Source: a virus | Lineage: Duplodnaviria > Heunggongvirae > Uroviricota > Caudoviricetes | Direction: 5' to 3' (one strand) | Length of the DNA: 7,370 nt | IMG/VR virus record: IMGVR_UViG_2703718811_000008 | Coordinates: 1-7,370 of that record | Part shown: positions 1 to 7,370 of the stretch, in pieces | How positions within the stretch are numbered: position 1 is the stretch's first letter | Layout of the letters: the number at the start of each line of letters is the position of its first letter | Translations under genes and position numbers: made by a program | The notes under the pieces: generated by a model | Databases searched by the model: none | What the model was told of the DNA's origin: nothing | The model's input: the letters and a program-made list of their open reading frames with translations, nothing else

Positions 1-104
1 GGACTGCCAAACGGCTGCCAGCCCTCCCTCAGTTTTTGTGTCAGTCGCTCCGCAAGGTCTGACGGAGACGCCGCCCTGACCACGTCATAGTGTTTAAATG
101 CCAT
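1..104 (-). CDS. Small phage protein, 5' part only (gene runs off the left edge); tentatively DUF1737-like, the type often found just upstream of lambdoid lysis genes
   Basis: ATG at 104..102 with GGAGG (RC of 109-113) 4 nt upstream; frame stays open to position 1; translation MAFKHYDVVRAASPSDLAERLTQKLREGWQPFGS...; absent from ORF track because under 60 aa inside the window. Family assignment is from memory of an EGW.P.G-type motif. Confidence 0.45.
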   Translation of the reverse strand, partial: MAFKHYDVVRAASPSDLAERLTQKLREGWQPFGS

Positions 105-283
105 TATTCCTCCCCTTTCCGGGATTTTCCTCAACAGTTGCGGGCCACGGTCCGGCTACACGGAGAATCAAAAGAGGAGAACCGCAGCCCGCAAAACGAA
201 AAAGGCCGCGCAGTTGCGCAGCCTTATAAACCCTGGTTAAAATCCACACGATAAAAATGACAATGCAAGTATCTCATGCTGTT

Positions 284-309
284 GCCCGAACCCACTCGGG
301 CTTTTTTTG
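284..309 (+). terminator. Rho-independent terminator (plus strand)
   Basis: Stem GCCCGA (284-289) / TCGGGC (296-301), loop ACCCAC, followed by T7 (302-308). Confidence 0.6.
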
Positions 310-310
310 C

Positions 311-340
311 ATAAAAAAATCCCCTCCGGAGAGGGGATTT
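311..340 (-). terminator. Rho-independent terminator (minus strand)
   Basis: Perfect 8-bp stem ATCCCCTC (319-326) / GAGGGGAT (331-338), loop CGGA; on the minus strand the hairpin is followed by T7 (RC of A-run 312-318). Confidence 0.6.
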
Positions 341-649
341 GCTTGTGTGAACATTTACATTGCATAACTGCATGGTGCCGGGTGCCTCCCGGTGAATTCA
401 GTATCAGCACCTGAATCCGCGATTATCACATATACCTACTTGCTGATTGCCCCTCCGCACAGGGGGATTCACCATGCGAGATTATTTTTAACAAAACGAC
501 GGGTTATTATCCAGTACCCAACATAATGAAATGTGATGCTTTTAACATTTTTCACAACCCGAGCTTAATGATAATCGCTTTATTAACACCCCAGTTTCAT
601 GGCGAGTTTAAATTTCTGCTTGTACCACTCTAGTTTAATATCAAAAATA

Positions 650-784
650 TCAGTTATCGATAAGAATATAGTAAACAAATAAACACATCCCGAGAAAACC
701 AATAACTATCATAGCTAATGCCAGCATAAATATTTGTTGTATACTTATTTTTACCGATGAAAGGTAACGCAGGAAAATGCTCAT
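650..784 (-). CDS. Candidate small single-TM membrane peptide (44 aa)
   Basis: ATG at 784..782 with GGGGA 7 nt upstream (RC of 785-800 = TTATGGGGACAGTATA); translation MSIFLRYLSSVKISIQQIFMLALAMIVIGFLGMCLFVYYILIDN, stop TGA at 650-652. This is the C-terminal part of track ORF 650..976, whose upstream part overlaps the tRNAs and is rejected. Very AT-rich, so could be a chance ORF. Confidence 0.3.
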   Translation of the reverse strand: MSIFLRYLSSVKISIQQIFMLALAMIVIGFLGMCLFVYYILIDN

Positions 785-807
785 TATACTGTCCCCATAA
801 TCCTCTA

Positions 808-882
<75 letters not shown>

Positions 883-883
883 A

Positions 884-960
884 TGGTGCGCCATACTGGA
901 TTCGAACCAGTGACCGATTGCTTAGAAGGCAATTGCTCTGTCCAACTGAGCTAACAGCGC
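884..960 (-). tRNA. tRNA-Arg (anticodon UCU, reads AGA), CCA encoded
   Basis: RC of 884-960 = GCGCTGTTAGCTCAGTTGGACAGAGCAATTGCCTTCTAAGCAATCGGTCACTGGTTCGAATCCAGTATGGCGCACCA. Canonical cloverleaf: D-arm GCTC/GAGC, anticodon stem ATTGC/GCAAT with loop CTTCTAA, T-arm ACTGG-TTCGAAT-CCAGT. Similar to but distinct from E. coli argU as recalled. Confidence 0.9.
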
Positions 961-964
961 TTCG

Positions 965-1038
965 TGCCCCTGCCATGTTTGAACCGGCGACCTGGCGGTT
1001 ATTAACCGCTCGCTCTGACCATTAGGGCTAAAGGGGCA
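965..1038 (-). tRNA. Degenerate tRNA-like element (possible pseudo-tRNA), no CCA encoded
   Basis: RC of 965-1038 = TGCCCCTTTAGCCCTAATGGTCAGAGCGAGCGGTTAATAACCGCCAGGTCGCCGGTTCAAACATGGCAGGGGCA. Perfect 7-bp acceptor-like stem TGCCCCT/AGGGGCA, T-loop-like GGTTCAAAC, anticodon-like loop TTAATAA (nominal AAU). But the D-stem has a mismatch, there are 3 nt between acceptor and D-stem, and the T-stem has a G-A pair. Sits 4 nt from tRNA-Arg. Confidence 0.35.
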
Positions 1039-1309
1039 ATAAGTTTCTTTAAAAACAGCATGCATATGCCTGCTATATAATCCATACTAACTTTTATTAA
1101 AAACAAATTCAACAAAATCAAGGTTAGCGATACTTCTTTATCTAATAGCAACATTAATTACTATTGTGTGATTTTGATGATACTCCCTATTAAAAAACTC
1201 TTCCATTAGCACAATGAGTGCTCAGCTATCTATTGAAATAAATGAGCACAAGAGGTATACATATCTCCACAGCAGACATTCTATCTAAAAGATCACAAAA
1301 ACAGACATC

Positions 1310-1657
1310 ATGATAAAAAATATTTTTATAATAATTTCAAGCATCCTCTGCATGGGGCTAATTGTGGAACATCCTCAAATCGACAGTGAAATATCGACAA
1401 ATGAAATAATCAATTGCCTTTCCAAGACAATTCAAGAAAGTGGTTATATAATGGATCTCAACGGCACCAAACCACCAATTAATGCAAAAGAATTCGCAAC
1501 ATATAGAATGTCAAAATACACCGGCTCATTCTGGATAGAGTATTCAACAGAAGGAAGACCAACAAGGAATGTTGGCATAATAAATGCAACAAATGATAAT
1601 TATAATACTTTGAATGATGCGTTACAATTTTGTATTAATAACATGACGAAATATTAA
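1310..1657 (+). CDS. Hypothetical small secreted or membrane-anchored protein (115 aa), AT-rich cargo gene
   Basis: ORF-track ORF; N-terminus MIKNIFIIISSILCMGLIV looks like a signal peptide or TM anchor; rest is hydrophilic and Asn/Thr-rich. Very AT-rich compared with the phage backbone. No strong SD before the ATG. No family recognised. Confidence 0.5.
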   Translation: MIKNIFIIISSILCMGLIVEHPQIDSEISTNEIINCLSKTIQESGYIMDLNGTKPPINAKEFATYRMSKYTGSFWIEYSTEGRPTRNVGIINATNDNYNTLNDALQFCINNMTKY

Positions 1658-1853
1658 CATCAACAATTAATATGTGTACATCCCCGTGAGCAAACCGTTC
1701 GTAATACCAGTGAGCAACAACAGCATGCGCTCCAACGTCTGAACGGCTTCGCCCATATGATATGGTTCAGCACATTAAAACGTTTACGCATCACGATTTC
1801 AATATCAGATGCCAGGCGATGTCCACAGAACAGGTAAAGACTTCCGGCTGGCT

Positions 1854-2013
1854 TTAACTACCCGACATAACGAGCTGGGTCAGTATTAACTGGCAGCGTT
1901 CGCGTGAAAGGTAAGTACTCTGCGCCATCTCCCCGACTGTCGCCGGGTCGTTAACACTTAATTCATTAAATAACACTCTGGCGGTTTCAGTCATATACGG
2001 CTGTTTCAGCATG
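1854..2013 (-). CDS. Small helix-turn-helix-like ORF (52 aa), possibly a truncated regulator remnant
   Basis: ATG at 2013..2011 with AGGGAAAAAG upstream; translation MLKQPYMTETARVLFNELSVNDPATVGEMAQSTYLSRERCQLILTQLVMSGS. The segment TVGEMAQSTYLSRERCQLILTQL has the pattern of an HTH recognition unit. The longer track ORF 1854..2195 is rejected because its extension contains a terminator hairpin. Confidence 0.35.
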
Positions 2014-2135
2014 TCTTTTTCCCTATTCCGGTTAACGTGACACACCAATAACTCTTGTCGAAAAAGCCAACAAGCTGAAAGACCGGTATTCACCACCACC
2101 AGCGCGTTTACTGAACTACTGAATGTTACAGACAT

Positions 2136-2165
2136 AAAAAAAGCCAGCCACAGGGGAAGGCTGGC
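2136..2165 (-). terminator. Rho-independent terminator (minus strand) downstream of the CPBP gene
   Basis: Stem GCCAGCC (2143-2149) / GGCTGGC (2159-2165), 9-nt loop; on the minus strand it is followed by T7 (RC of A-run 2136-2142). Confidence 0.55.
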
Positions 2166-2559
2166 AAACTCGTAGGGCAAAATGCTGTTACGCAAACTTC
2201 GTTACAGGGATATCCTGCAATACCTAAAATACACAACATTTAGACAACTACACAGTACCTCACTAAACTTTTAAGATTTTGTTATTAAATACAGTTATTC
2301 ACACTCTTACCTGATACGCAGTAATGCCCGTCTGGCCATGTAGAGTAACAACAGTCCGGGCAATGACAATCCATAGACACAAAAACCGCCCGCAGGTGGA
2401 TTTAGCAGTTTGGTACAGTAACCACTTTTAACATCATATTCTATAATTTACGTACGTAAATGCTTTACTACTCATTTTTAACCATTAATGGAGTGAATAT
2501 TATCCAGTGAGCCGTAAACCCCGTTCTTCAGGGCGTGGAGGATGTCAACAACAACATGT

Positions 2560-3378
2560 TCAATGATTTTTTAAGAATGGATAGGTAAAAAATAACAGGT
2601 GGCACAAATTCAACCCAAAATGAAAAAATGTAGCAACCCATAAGCGTCCACTAAACATCCATGCCATGCCATAAATCACTCCAGATAACATTGCAAACAG
2701 TACAAGTAACAAACCACCAGAATAATGATAAAGACCAAACAAAACTGAAGCGATAAACAATGCTACAAATGGATGTACAATCATAGAAAGACGCTGCTGA
2801 AGATATCCTCTGAAAAATGCTTCTTCAGCAAGAGAGACAAAAAACAAGTTGCTCAATATAAACTTTGGCAACCACTCCGGGAAATGAACCTCTGGTTTTA
2901 TTCCACCCAGTAAAACAGCTAAAACCAAAATAAATGGAACAGATAAAAAGAGCAAGGCCCACATTCCATAAGATACTTCGTACCTGAAATCGCTCTTAAA
3001 CAACCTGGGAAAAGATAACACCAATAAAAATGGCACCATGGCCTTATCAAAATTAAAATACATGGTGTATGGCGTACTAAACGGCCCGGTTATTACAGAA
3101 TTCAAAACCACAGGGTTATGAAAACCAGGCCAAAAGTGATATAGCAGCACAACAGATAATACAACTAAACAACTCTCCGTAACAATTCTACACCATGATT
3201 TCTGTGCCCACTTAACTTTTAACCAATACAATAGCCCAACGATTGTAAAGAGACCAAATGCCGGCCAATCTATAACTCCATTAGCGACACCCAAAACAAC
3301 AGATGCTATTAACAATAACAAAGAAAACAGTTTATATGCATTCAAACTTAGCAAGGATAAAGCCAGAACGCCCCACAT
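2560..3378 (-). CDS. CPBP-family (CAAX protease / Abi-type) intramembrane metalloprotease, 272 aa
   Basis: ATG at 3378..3376 with GGAGG about 6 nt upstream (RC of 3379-3395 = TTTTTGACGGAGGTTTT). Polytopic hydrophobic protein with the three CPBP motifs in order: EExxxR (AEEAFFRGY), FxxxH (FGLYHY), HxxxN (HFGLN). Gene is strongly AT-rich. Confidence 0.85.
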   Translation of the reverse strand: MWGVLALSLLSLNAYKLFSLLLLIASVVLGVANGVIDWPAFGLFTIVGLLYWLKVKWAQKSWCRIVTESCLVVLSVVLLYHFWPGFHNPVVLNSVITGPFSTPYTMYFNFDKAMVPFLLVLSFPRLFKSDFRYEVSYGMWALLFLSVPFILVLAVLLGGIKPEVHFPEWLPKFILSNLFFVSLAEEAFFRGYLQQRLSMIVHPFVALFIASVLFGLYHYSGGLLLVLFAMLSGVIYGMAWMFSGRLWVATFFHFGLNLCHLLFFTYPFLKNH

Positions 3379-3423
3379 AAAACCTCCGTCAAAAACAAAT
3401 CATCCCAAGATAACAATAACCAT

Positions 3424-3452
3424 TTATAATACAACTGTCATTTACAATGCAA
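3424..3452 (-). promoter_or_regulatory. Candidate sigma70 promoter for the CPBP gene (pR'-like late promoter or moron promoter)
   Basis: On the minus strand: -35 TTGCAT (3452..3447), 17-bp spacer, -10 TATAAA (3429..3424); about 45 nt upstream of the CPBP ATG, in the AT-rich Q-CPBP gap. Confidence 0.3.
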
Positions 3453-3495
3453 TGCTTACTACTCGTAAAAAATATAATAATAGTCAGAATCCTTC

Positions 3496-3519
3496 CTAGA
3501 TATTGCATGCAATATCTAG
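3496..3519. promoter_or_regulatory. Perfect 24-bp palindrome overlapping the Q stop codon; candidate protein-binding site
   Basis: CTAGATATTGCA|TGCAATATCTAG is exactly self-complementary; no U-tract on either strand, so not a classical terminator; overlaps the last Q codons and its TAG (3516-3518). Confidence 0.4.
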
Positions 3520-3884
3520 CATGCATCCATTTCCAGTGAAACATTAAGTGCCATTAACATCCCGTCAACAATACCCTCAGCCTTTTGAAGTTTTTTACCG
3601 ATATAACCATCCGAACAACCATGTTTTCTTGCCAAACTCATAAAAGTCATTCCAAATACGTAGTAATCAAGCAGCAATTCATGCAGTTCACTATTGTTCC
3701 GGTTCAGGCGCGCCATACACCCGCATATAATCATCGCGTCATCGTCACAACATTGCGGGCGGGATTTTATCTTTGCTGGAATAAGCCCCTTAAATCCGTT
3801 GGCAATAGACGACCATGTTACATCCTCATGGTTATTAGCTACCCATGCTCCCCAGTGTTCGAGAACCATCTGAATATCACGCAT
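3516..3884 (-). CDS. Late-gene antitermination protein Q (QuuD-like lambdoid Q family)
   Basis: ATG at 3884..3882 with GGAG 7 nt upstream; the track ORF starts 5 codons earlier at a TTG. Translation [34 protein letters not shown]...[16 protein letters not shown]... closely matches my recollection of E. coli DLP12 QuuD (YbcQ), including the Cys-rich zinc motif. Confidence 0.85.
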
Positions 3885-3901
3885 CAACTTTCTCCACAAA
3901 A

Positions 3902-4897
3902 TCAGGCCAGCACGCCAATTGCCAGCGCACGATCGATAAAACGAAATATCAGCTCCAGTTGGGAGCCATACTTTTCTTCAAATGCCACGGTATCCGCATG
4001 CAGCTCGTCGTGATGCTTTCTGCACAAAGGCAACACAAAAAGGTCATGCGCTTTTGTACCCATTCCACCCTGACCGTGGCCTATCAGGTGGTGGGGATCA
4101 TCAGCAGGCTTTCCACAACATGCACACGGCTGTGTCTTAACCCAGCGCGTGTACTTTTCATTAACCCAGCGGTGACGTTTTGGGCGTAACATAAAAGACT
4201 CCGGCGACTCCGGATCCACTTTCAGCGCCAGCACCTTTTTCGCTTTATCCTGGATGATGCTGGTGGCAGGAACCGAAGGAATAAGGTCACTTTCCCGGGT
4301 GACAGACGACACAACAGGCTTCGGTAATCTCAGTGCCTTACGGGCTGCACTTTCCGGTAAGGCATCCGCCAGGTCATTACGAACCAGCCACCAGCACAGT
4401 TCAGGCATTGTCACAACGTGACTATCATCAAAACCGAGATCCCGACGCACGACAGACAACACCCAGCGGGCACAGTTATCCGTTGCCATTGATTCCAGCC
4501 GTTCCGTGAACTGATCGCGCAGCTGGTTATCGCAGTGCCAGCACAGACGGATTGCGCCCGGCGCGTGTCGCATTGTGGTCATGTTCTCGCTGTGCCAGTC
4601 GGAATGAGGCCACTGGCAGCCTTTTTCACGAAGTAACCAGCTTTCAAGACATTCCACGCCACCAGCACGACGGATCACTGCCTCATTGCGGAACACGGCC
4701 CGAACGGCAGGATCATCCGCCAGCGGTTGTGATGCCGCCGGAACAGCACCACTGGCGAAAGATGAATAACGTTCCGGCTCAGGCTCCAGCAGGACACGCC
4801 CCTGCATAAACAGGGGCATCAGCTCTGAACCTGGCCTGAACAATACGATCCCCATACGCGGGGCAATTTCAGGGGTCAGTAGTGCTCTCACGGTCAC
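3902..4897 (-). CDS. DUF968-like prophage protein with C-terminal Cys/His (HNH-like zinc-binding) motif; YdfU-like position directly upstream of Q
   Basis: 331-aa ORF, stop TGA at 3902-3904. C-terminus [43 protein letters not shown] has C-x2-C...HH...PLC..HH...H spacing. Start uncertain: GTG at 4897, GTG at 4891 (better SD GAGG) or internal ATG. Confidence 0.75.
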
Positions 4898-4898
4898 C

Positions 4899-5708
4899 TC
4901 AATGAACGGTATCGAGCAGCTTTAACAGCTCAGGGAATCGGGATTCGAAGAAATGCGGCTGCGTCTCGCGCGGATTTGCGGGACTGGTGATGTTCTTGCC
5001 GAACATGCAGCCTTTCGCTGTCAGCGACCAGAATTTTTTGATGTTGTTAATCGCGGTACGGCTGTATCGTTCGCGCTGCTCGACGATCCCCAGCTTCACC
5101 ATCTGGTGATATGCCTGATTAGCCGTCAGGCGGATACCATACTGCTTCAGCAGTGCACTCAGTGACAGCGTAGGGCGACTTGAGCCATCGGGTGCATCGG
5201 CAGGAGCATCAATTGCATAGCGCGGAGCCAGATTCGGTAAGCCAACAGCCTCCTGGAGTTTCTGACAAGCCCCAAGCACAGATGAGTTAGACAGGTTTAA
5301 TTCCCGACGCATAAAGTCCAGCAGGATCACGCCAGCCTGCATCTTGTCAGCAGCCTGCCCGGATAATTTTTCCGGTGCGCTGGTTATCATATCGAAAGTA
5401 CGGATCACCTTCAGATGGAATGACGGGCTGATCCACATTGCATAGGCATACACCAGTTCTTTGCAGACATACGTCCCCTGGTTATTTCCGCCATTAATGA
5501 CGCTAACTGGTTGATTTTGTTCCAGAGGCGGAATTCCACCCTCGGTGAAAAGTTGTTCAATCAATTCACAGGTTTGCTTATTGGAGAGCCAGTATTTCGG
5601 GCGGTTTTTTTGTTCTCCCCCGGCTGCCCTGTGCAGATCGTTCAGGCTGTAACGCCCATAAGCATCACGACGAACTTCAATACCATCAATGACCATCAGA
5701 TTATTCAT
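4899..5708 (-). CDS. KilA-N domain protein (Roi / antirepressor-like), 269 aa
   Basis: ATG at 5708..5706 with AGGAG 9-10 nt upstream. N-terminus (VIDGIEVRRDAYGRYSLNDLHRA...GTYVCKELVYAYAMWISPSFHLKVI) matches the KilA-N/APSES pattern (GTWVHP..A..FA.WISPEF as recalled). Stop TGA at 4899-4901. Confidence 0.8.
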   Translation of the reverse strand: MNNLMVIDGIEVRRDAYGRYSLNDLHRAAGGEQKNRPKYWLSNKQTCELIEQLFTEGGIPPLEQNQPVSVINGGNNQGTYVCKELVYAYAMWISPSFHLKVIRTFDMITSAPEKLSGQAADKMQAGVILLDFMRRELNLSNSSVLGACQKLQEAVGLPNLAPRYAIDAPADAPDGSSRPTLSLSALLKQYGIRLTANQAYHQMVKLGIVEQRERYSRTAINNIKKFWSLTAKGCMFGKNITSPANPRETQPHFFESRFPELLKLLDTVH

Positions 5709-5727
5709 ACTTCGTTTCTCCTCTTAA

Positions 5728-5955
5728 TCAGGCGGCTGCACCCGCCGTTTTCTCGTACTTACTGATAGTGATCTCGACCTTCCCTCCCGGGATAACCGGT
5801 CCCCACTCCACCAGCATTCTTTTCACCTGACTGTCGTCTTCCCACACACCCGCGTGGGTCAGGGCGTCAAACAGCGCCTTGTTATAGTTGTCCAGATCGC
5901 GGATCCGGTTATCCCAGCATGGTTGCCACCTCCTGATTGGTTGGCGGAAAGCCAC
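5728..5955 (-). pseudogene. rusA: RusA Holliday-junction resolvase, C-terminal part only (5'-truncated)
   Basis: Frame translates to ...DNRIRDLDNYNKALFDALTHAGVWEDDSQVKRMLVEWGPVIPGGKVEITISKYE, matching the RusA C-terminal catalytic half (RRRDLDN...DALTKAGFWLDDAQV...GGRLELTITE as recalled). The frame is closed upstream, and the roughly 60 N-terminal residues expected for RusA are absent. The track's start is a GTG, and RusA-like sequence begins near 5915. Confidence 0.6.
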
Positions 5956-6019
5956 GCTCTTTCTGGTAAGAAATCAGCATATCCAGCACCTGCTGCTGGC
6001 ATTGAGTTAACGTCGTCAT
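5909..6019 (-). other. 36-codon ORF resembling the N-terminal start of a LexA-type DNA-binding domain; probable remnant at a mosaic junction
   Basis: ATG at 6019..6017 overlaps the TAA of the upstream gene (TAATG). Translation MTTLTQCQQQVLDMLISYQKERGFPPTNQEVATMLG aligns without gaps to LexA residues about 4-36 ([33 protein letters not shown], recalled), then hits TAA exactly where RusA similarity begins in the +1 frame. Confidence 0.3.
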
Positions 6020-6507
6020 TACGCCCCCACGTAATTCCCTGACAGATACCACTCATCACCCGATACAGCGCGCTTGCTGCTTTTCCGTAAACACTGCTCA
6101 CGACGCGCCAGAAAATTGTTTCGTTCTGGCTGGGAGTGGCTTTCACGGAATGCCGCCATCCACACGGTTGCAGCACGACGGTATAAGCCCCTGGACTCCA
6201 GTTCTTCAGCCTGGCGGGTCAGGCACAAAATCACCCGTGGATCGTTAGTGCCGACATAGAAATTGCGCACAGGTCTGGTTTCACGAACTGGTTGTGGTTC
6301 CGGCTCCTGCGCTCTCTCAGTCAGGCGCGGGAAATGTCTGCGTGTATCTCCTTCACAACGGTGAGCCACACGCCCACTCTGACGTAACTTGCTTGCTGAC
6401 TGCAGAACGCGCTGCCGTGAGTAACCTGCAAAAGCCTCCGCAATGTCTCCGGAAGTACACCCCGGATGGGCTTCAATGAATTTCTGAACGTCATTCAAAA
6501 GACTCAT
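6019..6507 (-). CDS. PerC-like transcriptional regulator with N-terminal winged-helix-like region (162 aa)
   Basis: ATG at 6507..6505 overlaps the TGA of the upstream replication gene (ATGA) and has GGGGGGG upstream. C-terminal LESRGLYRRAATVWMAAFRESHSQPERNNFLARREQCL matches the recalled PerC/Pch signature (LEARGLWRRAAARW...RRRKHCL). Confidence 0.65.
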   Translation of the reverse strand: MSLLNDVQKFIEAHPGCTSGDIAEAFAGYSRQRVLQSASKLRQSGRVAHRCEGDTRRHFPRLTERAQEPEPQPVRETRPVRNFYVGTNDPRVILCLTRQAEELESRGLYRRAATVWMAAFRESHSQPERNNFLARREQCLRKSSKRAVSGDEWYLSGNYVGA

Positions 6508-7370
6508 AATCCCCCCCTGAATCCTGCCGGGATCTGGCTGTAGTCCACGTTGTCGTAACTGGCTTTGAAGTACGGGTCTTCGCGTTTTTCGGTGTACGTG
6601 CTGACGGACGGCGATAAGCGCAGGGAAAGCTCATCCCATTTTTCCCGCAGCTTCGACGGGCTGAGCACGTTACGGCACCAGAACGGATCGCGACTGACGC
6701 GGCTGTACATCTCGCAGATTTGTTTATGAGTACGACCATCCTGCACACACATCAGGCGAATTTCGTTTGCCCAGGCTGTCCAGTTCGGTTCTTTGGGACG
6801 AACCACCTCGCCGTCACATTCGGCGGCATGCTCGTACAGGGCGATGATTTTTTTCCAGAGCCACTGTGCGCAGGTCAAATCATCCTGCGTCCCCCACTGG
6901 CGCTTTTTAGGACTGAATACAACCGCATCAGGATGGCGAGTTAAAAAATCCTGTTCAGCCGTCTGCGTGTCCGGTTGCGAAGCGTCCGGACGAGAAGTTT
7001 TTTTATCTGACGGATCATGTTTTGATTTTACTGACGGATCCCCACCAGATTCTGACGGGTGAAAACCCGCTTTTTTGCCAGATTTCGACGCATCAAATTT
7101 TGACGGGCCAGATTTTGATGCGTCAGATTTTGACGGGTCAGAATCTGACAGTTGAGAAAATGCCGCTGCCTGAAGCTTCGCAACGTTAAGCTGATAAACA
7201 TTCGACGCATTGCGGTTACCCTGGCGACGCGCCTTACGCGTTAACCAGCCTTCTGCTTCCAGCCGTGCGATAGCCGTTCTGACGGTACTCATCCCCGCGC
7301 CAATCTGGCGGGCAATGGTTTCAATTGATGGCCAGCACACACCTTTGAACCGCCCCGGAAATCCTGGAGA
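6504..7370 (-). CDS. Phage replication initiation protein (O-like; winged-helix N-terminal domain, repeat-encoded linker), 5' end beyond window
   Basis: Frame is open to the right edge (the track's start at 7340 is a GTG, not a true start). The N-terminal CWPSIETIARQIGAGMSTVRTAIARLEAEGWLTRKARRQGNRNASNVYQL fits the wHTH pattern of replication initiators. An internal Ser/Asp/Lys-rich low-complexity linker is encoded by the tandem DNA repeats. Position is upstream of a nin-like region and Q. Confidence 0.7.
   Translation of the reverse strand, partial: SPGFPGRFKGVCWPSIETIARQIGAGMSTVRTAIARLEAEGWLTRKARRQGNRNASNVYQLNVAKLQAAAFSQLSDSDPSKSDASKSGPSKFDASKSGKKAGFHPSESGGDPSVKSKHDPSDKKTSRPDASQPDTQTAEQDFLTRHPDAVVFSPKKRQWGTQDDLTCAQWLWKKIIALYEHAAECDGEVVRPKEPNWTAWANEIRLMCVQDGRTHKQICEMYSRVSRDPFWCRNVLSPSKLREKWDELSLRLSPSVSTYTEKREDPYFKASYDNVDYSQIPAGFRGGL
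7081..7155. repeat. Five direct 15-bp tandem repeats (iteron-like), with three looser copies at 7001-7060
   Basis: GATTTCGACGCATCA / AATTTTGACGGGCCA / GATTTTGATGCGTCA / GATTTTGACGGGTCA / GAATCTGACAGTTGA at exact 15-bp spacing. The core TGACGGGTCA is a TGAC/GTCA inverted repeat. Extra TGACGG copies at 7008, 7032 and 7053 flank an AT-rich patch (6996-7030). Confidence 0.8.

Follow-up and report, generated by a model that had tools for sequence, protein, structure and literature searches.

A small, probably exported protein encoded between the Q antiterminator and tRNA genes, opposite the late strand of an Escherichia coli lambdoid prophage

Introduction

What is the role of a small, AT-rich gene that is read against its neighbors in the late-regulatory region of a lambdoid prophage? 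This question is raised by positions 1 to 7,370 of the IMG/VR virus record IMGVR_UViG_2703718811_000008 (Caudoviricetes), hereafter the window, i.e., the whole stretch of 7,370 nucleotides (nt) that was analyzed. The window corresponds to the late-regulatory region of an Escherichia coli lambdoid prophage, and the bovine strain OkiPb01678 carries a prophage with 98.9% identity to it. On its + strand, an open reading frame (ORF) at positions 1310-1657, stop codon included, starts with ATG and encodes a precursor of 115 amino acids (aa) whose translation opens with MIKNIFIIISSILCMGLIV. A sequence-only reading of this DNA had described the product as a protein of no recognized family with an N-terminal signal or anchor, and had proposed either a link with the CPBP protease encoded nearby or an independent periplasmic role. 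Our results fit the second proposal. On balance, we favor an explanation in which the ORF is a moron expressed in the lysogen and encodes a periplasmic, probably disulfide-bonded binding protein for which no target is named.

Results and discussion

A conserved gene under purifying selection

The ORF is the sole sizeable + strand gene of the window and, in the matching genome record, all other RefSeq protein-coding genes lie on the - strand except one 99-nt partial pseudogene. The opposite orientation described in the sequence-only reading is thus confirmed by both the ORF list and the RefSeq strands; the AT-rich composition is confirmed as well, the GC content being 31.9% for the ORF, 35-39% for the CPBP gene and 50-57% for the phage backbone. 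The body of the protein is polar and Asn/Thr-rich as described (12% Asn and 10% Thr in the mature part), but it also contains 12% Ile; its pI is about 5.

The ORF is almost certainly a real gene. An ORF of at least 115 codons was obtained in only 7 of 2000 dinucleotide-preserving shuffles of positions 1000-1700, so that chance seldom yields such a length at this base composition. When the gene was compared with its 87%-identical copy in strain MFDS1022581, 8, 10 and 28 nucleotide differences were counted at the first, second and third codon positions, and the ratio of nonsynonymous to synonymous substitution rates (dN/dS) was 0.19 for the whole gene and 0.14 for the mature part. Over the pairs compared, dN/dS ranged from 0.19 to 0.64 for the whole gene and from 0.14 to 0.51 for the mature part, the more distant pairs giving 0.19-0.51 for the latter. 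Conservation in relatives, the lack of which the earlier reading had listed as a refutation, was found with homologues from 99 down to 25% identity; those as distant as 25-30% still share the length, the hydrophobic N-terminus and two cysteines. Third-position bias, dN/dS values and conservation among homologues therefore all point to a real gene evolving under purifying selection.

A Sec-like N-terminus throughout the family

Signal-peptide features were judged from the charge, the uncharged run, the Kyte-Doolittle hydropathy and the (-3,-1) rule. The protein of the window carries a lysine at position 3, and its residues 5-19 form an uncharged stretch of 15 residues in which the Kyte-Doolittle mean over 10 residues peaks at 3.0. 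It thus displays both the charged n-region and the hydrophobic h-region of a Sec signal peptide. The predicted signal peptide would cover residues 1-16 (MIKNIFIIISSILCMG; positions 1310-1357, + strand) and end at C-M-G|L, the one site of this protein that conforms to the (-3,-1) rule, acceptable but atypical. The same layout was observed in all 20 family N-termini inspected, each having one or two Lys/Arg within the first six residues and a (-3,-1)-rule site at residues 16-25; the uncharged run spans 9-16 residues in 19 of them and 23 in the last one. Cleavage-type sites in the relatives include T-G-A|V, A-G-A|V, L-A-A|A, A-Y-A|D and S-Y-S|Q, and those of the Salmonella members, e.g., SAYA|D and SLAA|A, are textbook cases. 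Divergent members possess unrelated yet signal-like N-termini, e.g., MRFIIFIVIILMGSQSAYA|D (continuing |DIR) and MKLFFHMLFFCLVIFNSPDSYS|Q. Besides, one depositor independently labelled a Salmonella member "Putative exported protein". These features make it very probable that the protein is exported. That it is subsequently cleaved and soluble, rather than anchored, seems reasonably likely, signal peptidase I probably acting after Gly16.

The earlier wording, signal or anchor, left room for both outcomes, and the second deserves to be weighed. C-M-G|L is the weakest site of the family set, which tells against cleavage and makes an anchoring in the membrane possible. The protein could then be a bitopic inner-membrane protein, with an uncleaved N-terminal signal anchor and its domain on the periplasmic face. 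T4 Sp and Cmi, the immunity protein for colicin M, are built in this way, with an uncleaved anchor and a periplasmic domain. Two further features of the window protein are consistent with an anchor: the site falls within the hydrophobic run (residues 5-19), and a Leu is found where relatives have their -1 Ala. However, 19 of the 20 members have an uncharged run of 9-16 residues, too little for a typical membrane helix, canonical A-x-A-type sites come right after this run in most relatives, and AlphaFold did not predict a confident helix for the segment (predicted local distance difference test, pLDDT, of about 41-43). An anchored protein is consequently regarded as a credible but unlikely outcome, and a cleaved, soluble one is retained. 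A lipoprotein of the Bor/Iss/Cor type was also considered and rejected, because S-I-L precedes Cys14 and no [LVI][ASTVI][GAS]C lipobox is formed, and because Cys14 is not conserved, homologues having T, S, I, V or G in its place.

A confidently predicted mature domain that matches no known family

The mature domain, of about 99 aa (positions 1358-1654, + strand), was modeled with AlphaFold2 as a two-layer beta-alpha-beta4-alpha domain, with the order beta1-alpha1-beta2-beta3-beta4-beta5-alpha2 (model m731f68f4896b). Using 25 sequences, a pLDDT of 89.7 and a predicted template modeling score of 0.82 were reached; this model supersedes a first run with 8 close sequences, for which pLDDT was 68. 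Eight residues are invariant in a 13-sequence alignment, namely Cys36, Tyr46, Glu61, Gly72, Trp75, Ile76, Leu105 and Cys108. Across the 25 sequences, five of these eight columns are strictly invariant and the others are at least 90% conserved. Cys36 (positions 1415-1417) lies in alpha1 and Cys108 (positions 1631-1633) in alpha2, the former being invariant across the family and the latter nearly so. Since the protein would be exported and both helices carry a conserved cysteine, Cys36 and Cys108 are probably joined by a disulfide bridge.

With its helices packed on one face of an antiparallel sheet in a beta-alpha-beta(n)-alpha order, the domain presents a KA1/TBP-like/helix-grip topology. The same fold class includes the METTL16 VCR, the N-terminal domain of RnlA, the KA1 domains of kinases, Francisella Flpp3 and the N-terminal domain of BamC. 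Structure prediction followed by Foldseek, as recommended in the sequence-only reading, thus yielded a confident fold, but no match with an E-value below 0.001 among the PDB and viral models. Family searches agreed with the earlier statement that no family could be recognized, none of the matches being significant: Pfam was searched with the single protein and with all 25 aligned members, among which no family recurred, and its best E-value was 0.19; the best NCBIfam match had an E-value of 0.024 and 13 bits against a cutoff of 405; the best E-values were 0.056 in PHROGs and 0.95 for the PDB sequence-profile search, and PADLOC gave no match. The family is therefore without an entry in Pfam, NCBIfam or PHROGs, although the kind to which it belongs, that of small exported proteins encoded by prophage accessory genes, is well known.

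Family members in Escherichia and Salmonella

A database search returned 10 clusters with 56-99% identity, all of those with a named source being from Escherichia. An exhaustive profile search, together with a second indexed search using a divergent alignment, brought the total to about 37 clusters, in which all named sources are Escherichia or Salmonella, S. bongori included. Among 5426 complete E. coli genomes, the ORF was found in 9 with at least 87% nucleotide identity and in 28 by a sensitive search; parts of the window match all 5426 genomes, whereas a close match to the ORF is limited to these 9, and most relatives of this phage thus lack it. With the close alignment, Escherichia ruysiae was the only hit among species-representative genomes, along with 4 IMG/VR contigs. 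In deposited phage genomes, blastn found no copy and tblastn one weak match (E = 5e-5), in a 1.5-kb Salmonella phage record. Two very large proteins also scored through 18-19 repeated stretches, P0013 (2624 aa, E = 1e-26) and P0016 (3294 aa, E = 2e-13). The score of P0013 was rejected as an artifact because it results from many weak matches to a low-complexity repeat, and P0016, which shows the same many-stretch pattern, was set aside with it.

Copies were also detected in two prophage remnants, of which one adjoins tRNA-Ser and yccA and the other an ompT-like gene. The 87-kb plasmid p2 of E. coli strain cM8a contains an unannotated full-length member (locus L006, 7924-8265) with 44% identity to the window protein, located beside phage-type tRNA genes among insertion sequence elements. 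In Salmonella, plasmid copies are flanked by a chaperone-usher fimbrial operon on one side and by a relaxase gene on the other, and a chromosomal islet separating yedF from fliE is conserved across S. bongori and the S. enterica subspecies. The homologue of this islet (L010-L014, 8001-8375; L030 and L033, about 3001-3387) is labelled "50S ribosomal protein L1" by some sources, which looks like a propagated annotation error.

A recurrent position between Q and phage tRNA genes

A gene for a Q-type antiterminator is convergent to the family member in seven loci (L001, L003, L004, L005, L008, L031 and L032). Three types of antiterminator are involved: PF06530 of 127 aa in the window (positions 3516-3899, - strand; E = 7e-52), PF03589 of 273 aa in L001 and L008, and a 250-aa type in L004 and L005, which the Prokaryotic Genome Annotation Pipeline (PGAP) annotates as "antitermination protein". 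On the other side, a divergent phage tRNA gene is found 190-400 nt upstream in all 16 prophage-type loci for which upstream DNA is available. The tRNAs encountered are Arg-UCU with Gly-UCC, Gly-CCC, or a tRNA with a CAU anticodon (tRNA-Ile in RefSeq). In the window, tRNA-Arg(UCU) is located at 884-960 and tRNA-Gly(UCC) at 808-882, both on the - strand and both detected by ARAGORN and the Rfam tRNA model. Salmonella prophages, in which the protein is only about 30% identical, show the same Q/ORF/tRNA layout. Within the ORF, all three Arg codons are AGA or AGG (two of them AGA, which tRNA-Arg(UCU) decodes), and 9 of the 18 Ile codons are ATA. AGA/AGG and ATA are rare codons that are read by the phage tRNAs found upstream, here or in related phages, which may provide codon support for AT-rich cargo. 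In L008, a PmrD-like ORF (PF11183; 6849-7172, + strand) shares the strand of the family member, from which the tRNA cluster separates it, and is possibly another regulatory cargo gene.

The comparison with L007, an O157 Stx1a prophage whose flanking genes are about 93% identical to those of the window phage, locates this slot: window positions 550-2107, comprising the tRNAs, the ORF, a DNA methyltransferase gene remnant and most of an ORF matching phrog_331, correspond to L007 3532-4997, i.e., the position of stxA1/stxB1. The methyltransferase remnant (positions 1660-1794, - strand; a PGAP pseudogene) starts 3 nt past the stop codon of the ORF and accompanies every ORF copy of at least 97% identity (L001, L003 and L026-L028). 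There, GC content steps from 0.34 to 0.48, marking the right-hand edge of the AT-rich cassette. Lying between Q and the lysis module, being present or absent among related phages and having an atypical GC content, the ORF has the placement, distribution and composition of a moron.

In lambdoid phages, pR' is located just 3' of Q, and the Q-modified polymerase transcribes through to the lysis genes. Under this mechanism, late transcription would read antisense through the ORF. Since it lies opposite the late strand, the ORF is excluded from the late genes and must rely on a separate promoter. About 40 nt 5' of the ATG (positions 1233-1261, + strand), a TTGAAA-17 nt-TATACA element may represent such a promoter, of the sigma-70 type, and we infer it from hexamers that are kept, together with their spacing, in copies of about 70% identity (L002, L008, L016 and L017).

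Proposed role and points weighing against it

From these elements, the following scheme can be proposed. The ORF would be an autonomous moron housed in a variable slot between Q and the tRNA/lysis genes. It would probably be transcribed in the prophage state, from a sigma-70-type promoter of its own, and silenced after induction by head-on, Q-antiterminated late transcription. The precursor would then be exported via Sec, its signal peptide probably being removed after Gly16, to yield a periplasmic, acidic, two-layer alpha+beta domain of 11 kDa whose two helices are probably connected by the Cys36-Cys108 disulfide. As no catalytic signature was found, the most likely role would be the binding of an envelope component or of an incoming factor, from which the lysogen would benefit. 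Superinfection exclusion is one candidate role, and immunity to or inhibition of an external enzyme or toxin another.

Several observations weigh against this scheme. The TTGAAA-17-TATACA element falls below the threshold of a consensus promoter scanner, no intrinsic terminator was found on the + strand downstream of the ORF, and a Shine-Dalgarno sequence is absent before every candidate start examined. The yedF-fliE copy is conserved in both S. bongori and S. enterica, for which a housekeeping role in the envelope is no less suitable an explanation than phage exclusion. A literature search by gene name, annotation label and RefSeq accessions found no paper on the protein. Finally, the RefSeq/PGAP call (WP_024217725.1) is a 97-aa protein that starts at the GTG at 1364 and is deprived of the predicted signal peptide. 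However, the 18 codons 5' of this GTG are open in all copies read and hydrophobic in every homologue, and the signal segment combines a dN close to dS, i.e., a rapid sequence change, with retained hydrophobicity. Signal peptides typically evolve so, changing fast in sequence and staying hydrophobic. The 115-aa form is preferred over the 97-aa one because its upstream codons are open, hydrophobic and evolve like a signal peptide. For WP_024166241.1, PGAP likewise starts at an internal GTG (97 aa), while other depositors give 99, 101 or 115 aa.

No neighboring effector gene, motif or fold match favors one candidate role over another, and any specific role should be regarded as doubtful at best. 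A more ambitious version of the scheme is considered quite unlikely. The ORF would be the founding prophage member of a new periplasmic family specific to Escherichia and Salmonella, and would form, as the antisense gene, a conserved three-part module with Q and the rare-codon tRNA genes; it would protect the envelope in the lysogen only, through exclusion or by neutralizing a toxin or an enzyme, and be switched off at induction, and the Salmonella copy beside fliE would have been fixed before the split between S. bongori and S. enterica. Improbable too is an orphan periplasmic immunity protein or inhibitor directed against a type VI or contact-dependent effector, a colicin-like toxin or a lysozyme: Cmi offers an analogy for such a protein, but no effector gene stands beside the ORF.

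The position of the Salmonella copy beside fliE and fliF, conserved in S. bongori and the S. enterica subspecies, could also suggest a flagellum-related periplasmic factor. This appears very improbable. The gene is convergent with fliE and forms no operon with it, its GC content is 45% against 55% for the flanks, and the E. coli K-12 equivalent of the site is occupied by the prophage integrase remnant intG, which marks it as an integration hot spot; moreover, the copies of E. coli, of plasmids and of Salmonella prophages have no flagellar neighbors. Membership of the flagellar regulon was rejected as well, the sigma-28-like element GCCGAAAA being present upstream of the copy in subspecies houtenae and absent from S. 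bongori and subspecies enterica. The poor conservation of this -10 element and the hot-spot nature of the site led us to set the flagellar role aside.

Independence from the CPBP protease gene

The sequence-only reading had suggested that the product could be linked to the CPBP protease as a substrate, a partner or an exported factor, and had let this link stand or fall with co-occurrence. Examined in both directions, co-occurrence went against it. The CPBP gene was found in 2 of the 27 family loci, both belonging to the window's own phage. Of the 9 genomes with a close ORF copy 2 contain it, as do 2 of the 28 with any copy. Among the 5426 complete E. coli genomes, it is present in these two alone, and because the two isolates are both bovine, both come from Okinawa and have CPBP copies that are 99.9% identical, they may represent a single observation. 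The ORF is very likely independent of the CPBP gene, and the alternative offered at the time, an independent periplasmic protein, fits the evidence.

That the small protein is a substrate, partner or immunity-type companion of this Rce1/Abi-like intramembrane protease is consequently hardly credible, even though the two genes are only about 900 nt apart, are both AT-rich and encode envelope proteins, and both E. coli genomes with the CPBP gene carry the ORF too. Against these points, the CPBP gene is missing from 7 of the 9 close-copy genomes and from 25 of the 27 loci, and the two genes lie on opposite strands with two other gene remnants between them. The CPBP protein matches phrog_13291 over its full length (E = 4e-107), whereas the small protein has no PHROG. 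Its C-terminus (...QFCINNMTKY) contains neither a CAAX-type motif nor a recognizable processing site, the last Cys being 8 residues from the end and within the predicted helix alpha2.

The last alternative, that of a chance ORF in AT-rich DNA or of DNA functional on the late-transcript strand, would account for the missing Shine-Dalgarno sequence, the lack of a family match and the inconsistent annotated starts (97, 99, 101 and 115 aa), but it can practically be dismissed, being already refuted by homologues of down to 25% identity in which Cys, Trp and Gly positions do not vary, by purifying selection and third-position bias, by the shuffle result and by a model with a pLDDT of 90 obtained from only 25 sequences.

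Other features of the window

The remaining annotated protein-coding genes are on the - strand, the 99-nt partial pseudogene excepted. In the order of transcription, a replication-initiator-like gene, a PerC-family gene and RusA come first (ORF list and profile matches), followed by a KilA-N gene (4899-5708), a DUF968 gene (3902-4897), the Q gene, the CPBP/Rce1-like gene (2560-3378; PF02517) and the phrog_331 ORF (1854-2195). The CPBP gene is an extra insertion between Q and the DNA that directly follows Q in the Stx1a phage. Beyond the tRNAs, only the start of a nanS-p-like esterase gene is included. Just upstream of it, Rfam reported back-to-back matches to AgvB, an anti-GcvB small RNA (249-308, + strand; 56.6 bits, barely over the gathering score of 56), and to STnc100 (308-507, - strand; 136 bits). 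AgvB is known from prophages of enterohemorrhagic E. coli.

Comparison with known systems

In lambdoid prophages, Shiga toxin and other lysogenic-conversion genes occupy the space between Q and the lysis genes. A probably exported protein recurring there in E. coli and Salmonella prophages, with a chromosomal Salmonella copy by fliE, is a reasonable candidate for a new envelope fitness, exclusion or immunity factor. The RefSeq start and the "50S ribosomal protein L1" labels illustrate how automated pipelines miss the export of this family. Small exported prophage accessory proteins are common, and there is no sign of an unusual mechanism here.

With stx1AB and stx2AB, the ORF shares its location between the Q gene and the nanS-p-like esterase/lysis genes, often by phage tRNAs. 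In contrast, the stx genes are on the late strand and depend on pR' and Q, while the ORF is antisense and its protein unrelated to Stx. The genes of lambda Bor and its relative Iss also stand opposite to late transcription. The likeness would extend to the size of the precursor, about 100 aa, to its N-terminal export signal, to a stand-alone gene of the late region expressed in the lysogen, and to an action at the envelope. Bor nevertheless differs in being a lipoprotein with a lipobox Cys, whereas S-I-L-C in the window protein is not a lipobox; no sequence similarity was found (no Pfam match), and the ORF follows Q while Bor follows the lysis genes. T4 Sp, Cor and Cmi offer a further analogy. 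They are roughly 100-120 aa long, combine an N-terminal hydrophobic signal or anchor with a small periplasmic domain, are carried by mobile elements and protect their carrier. Cmi has 117 aa and one disulfide. By analogy with Bor, Cor, Sp and Cmi, exclusion and immunity would be the most plausible classes of function for the protein encoded at 1310-1657.
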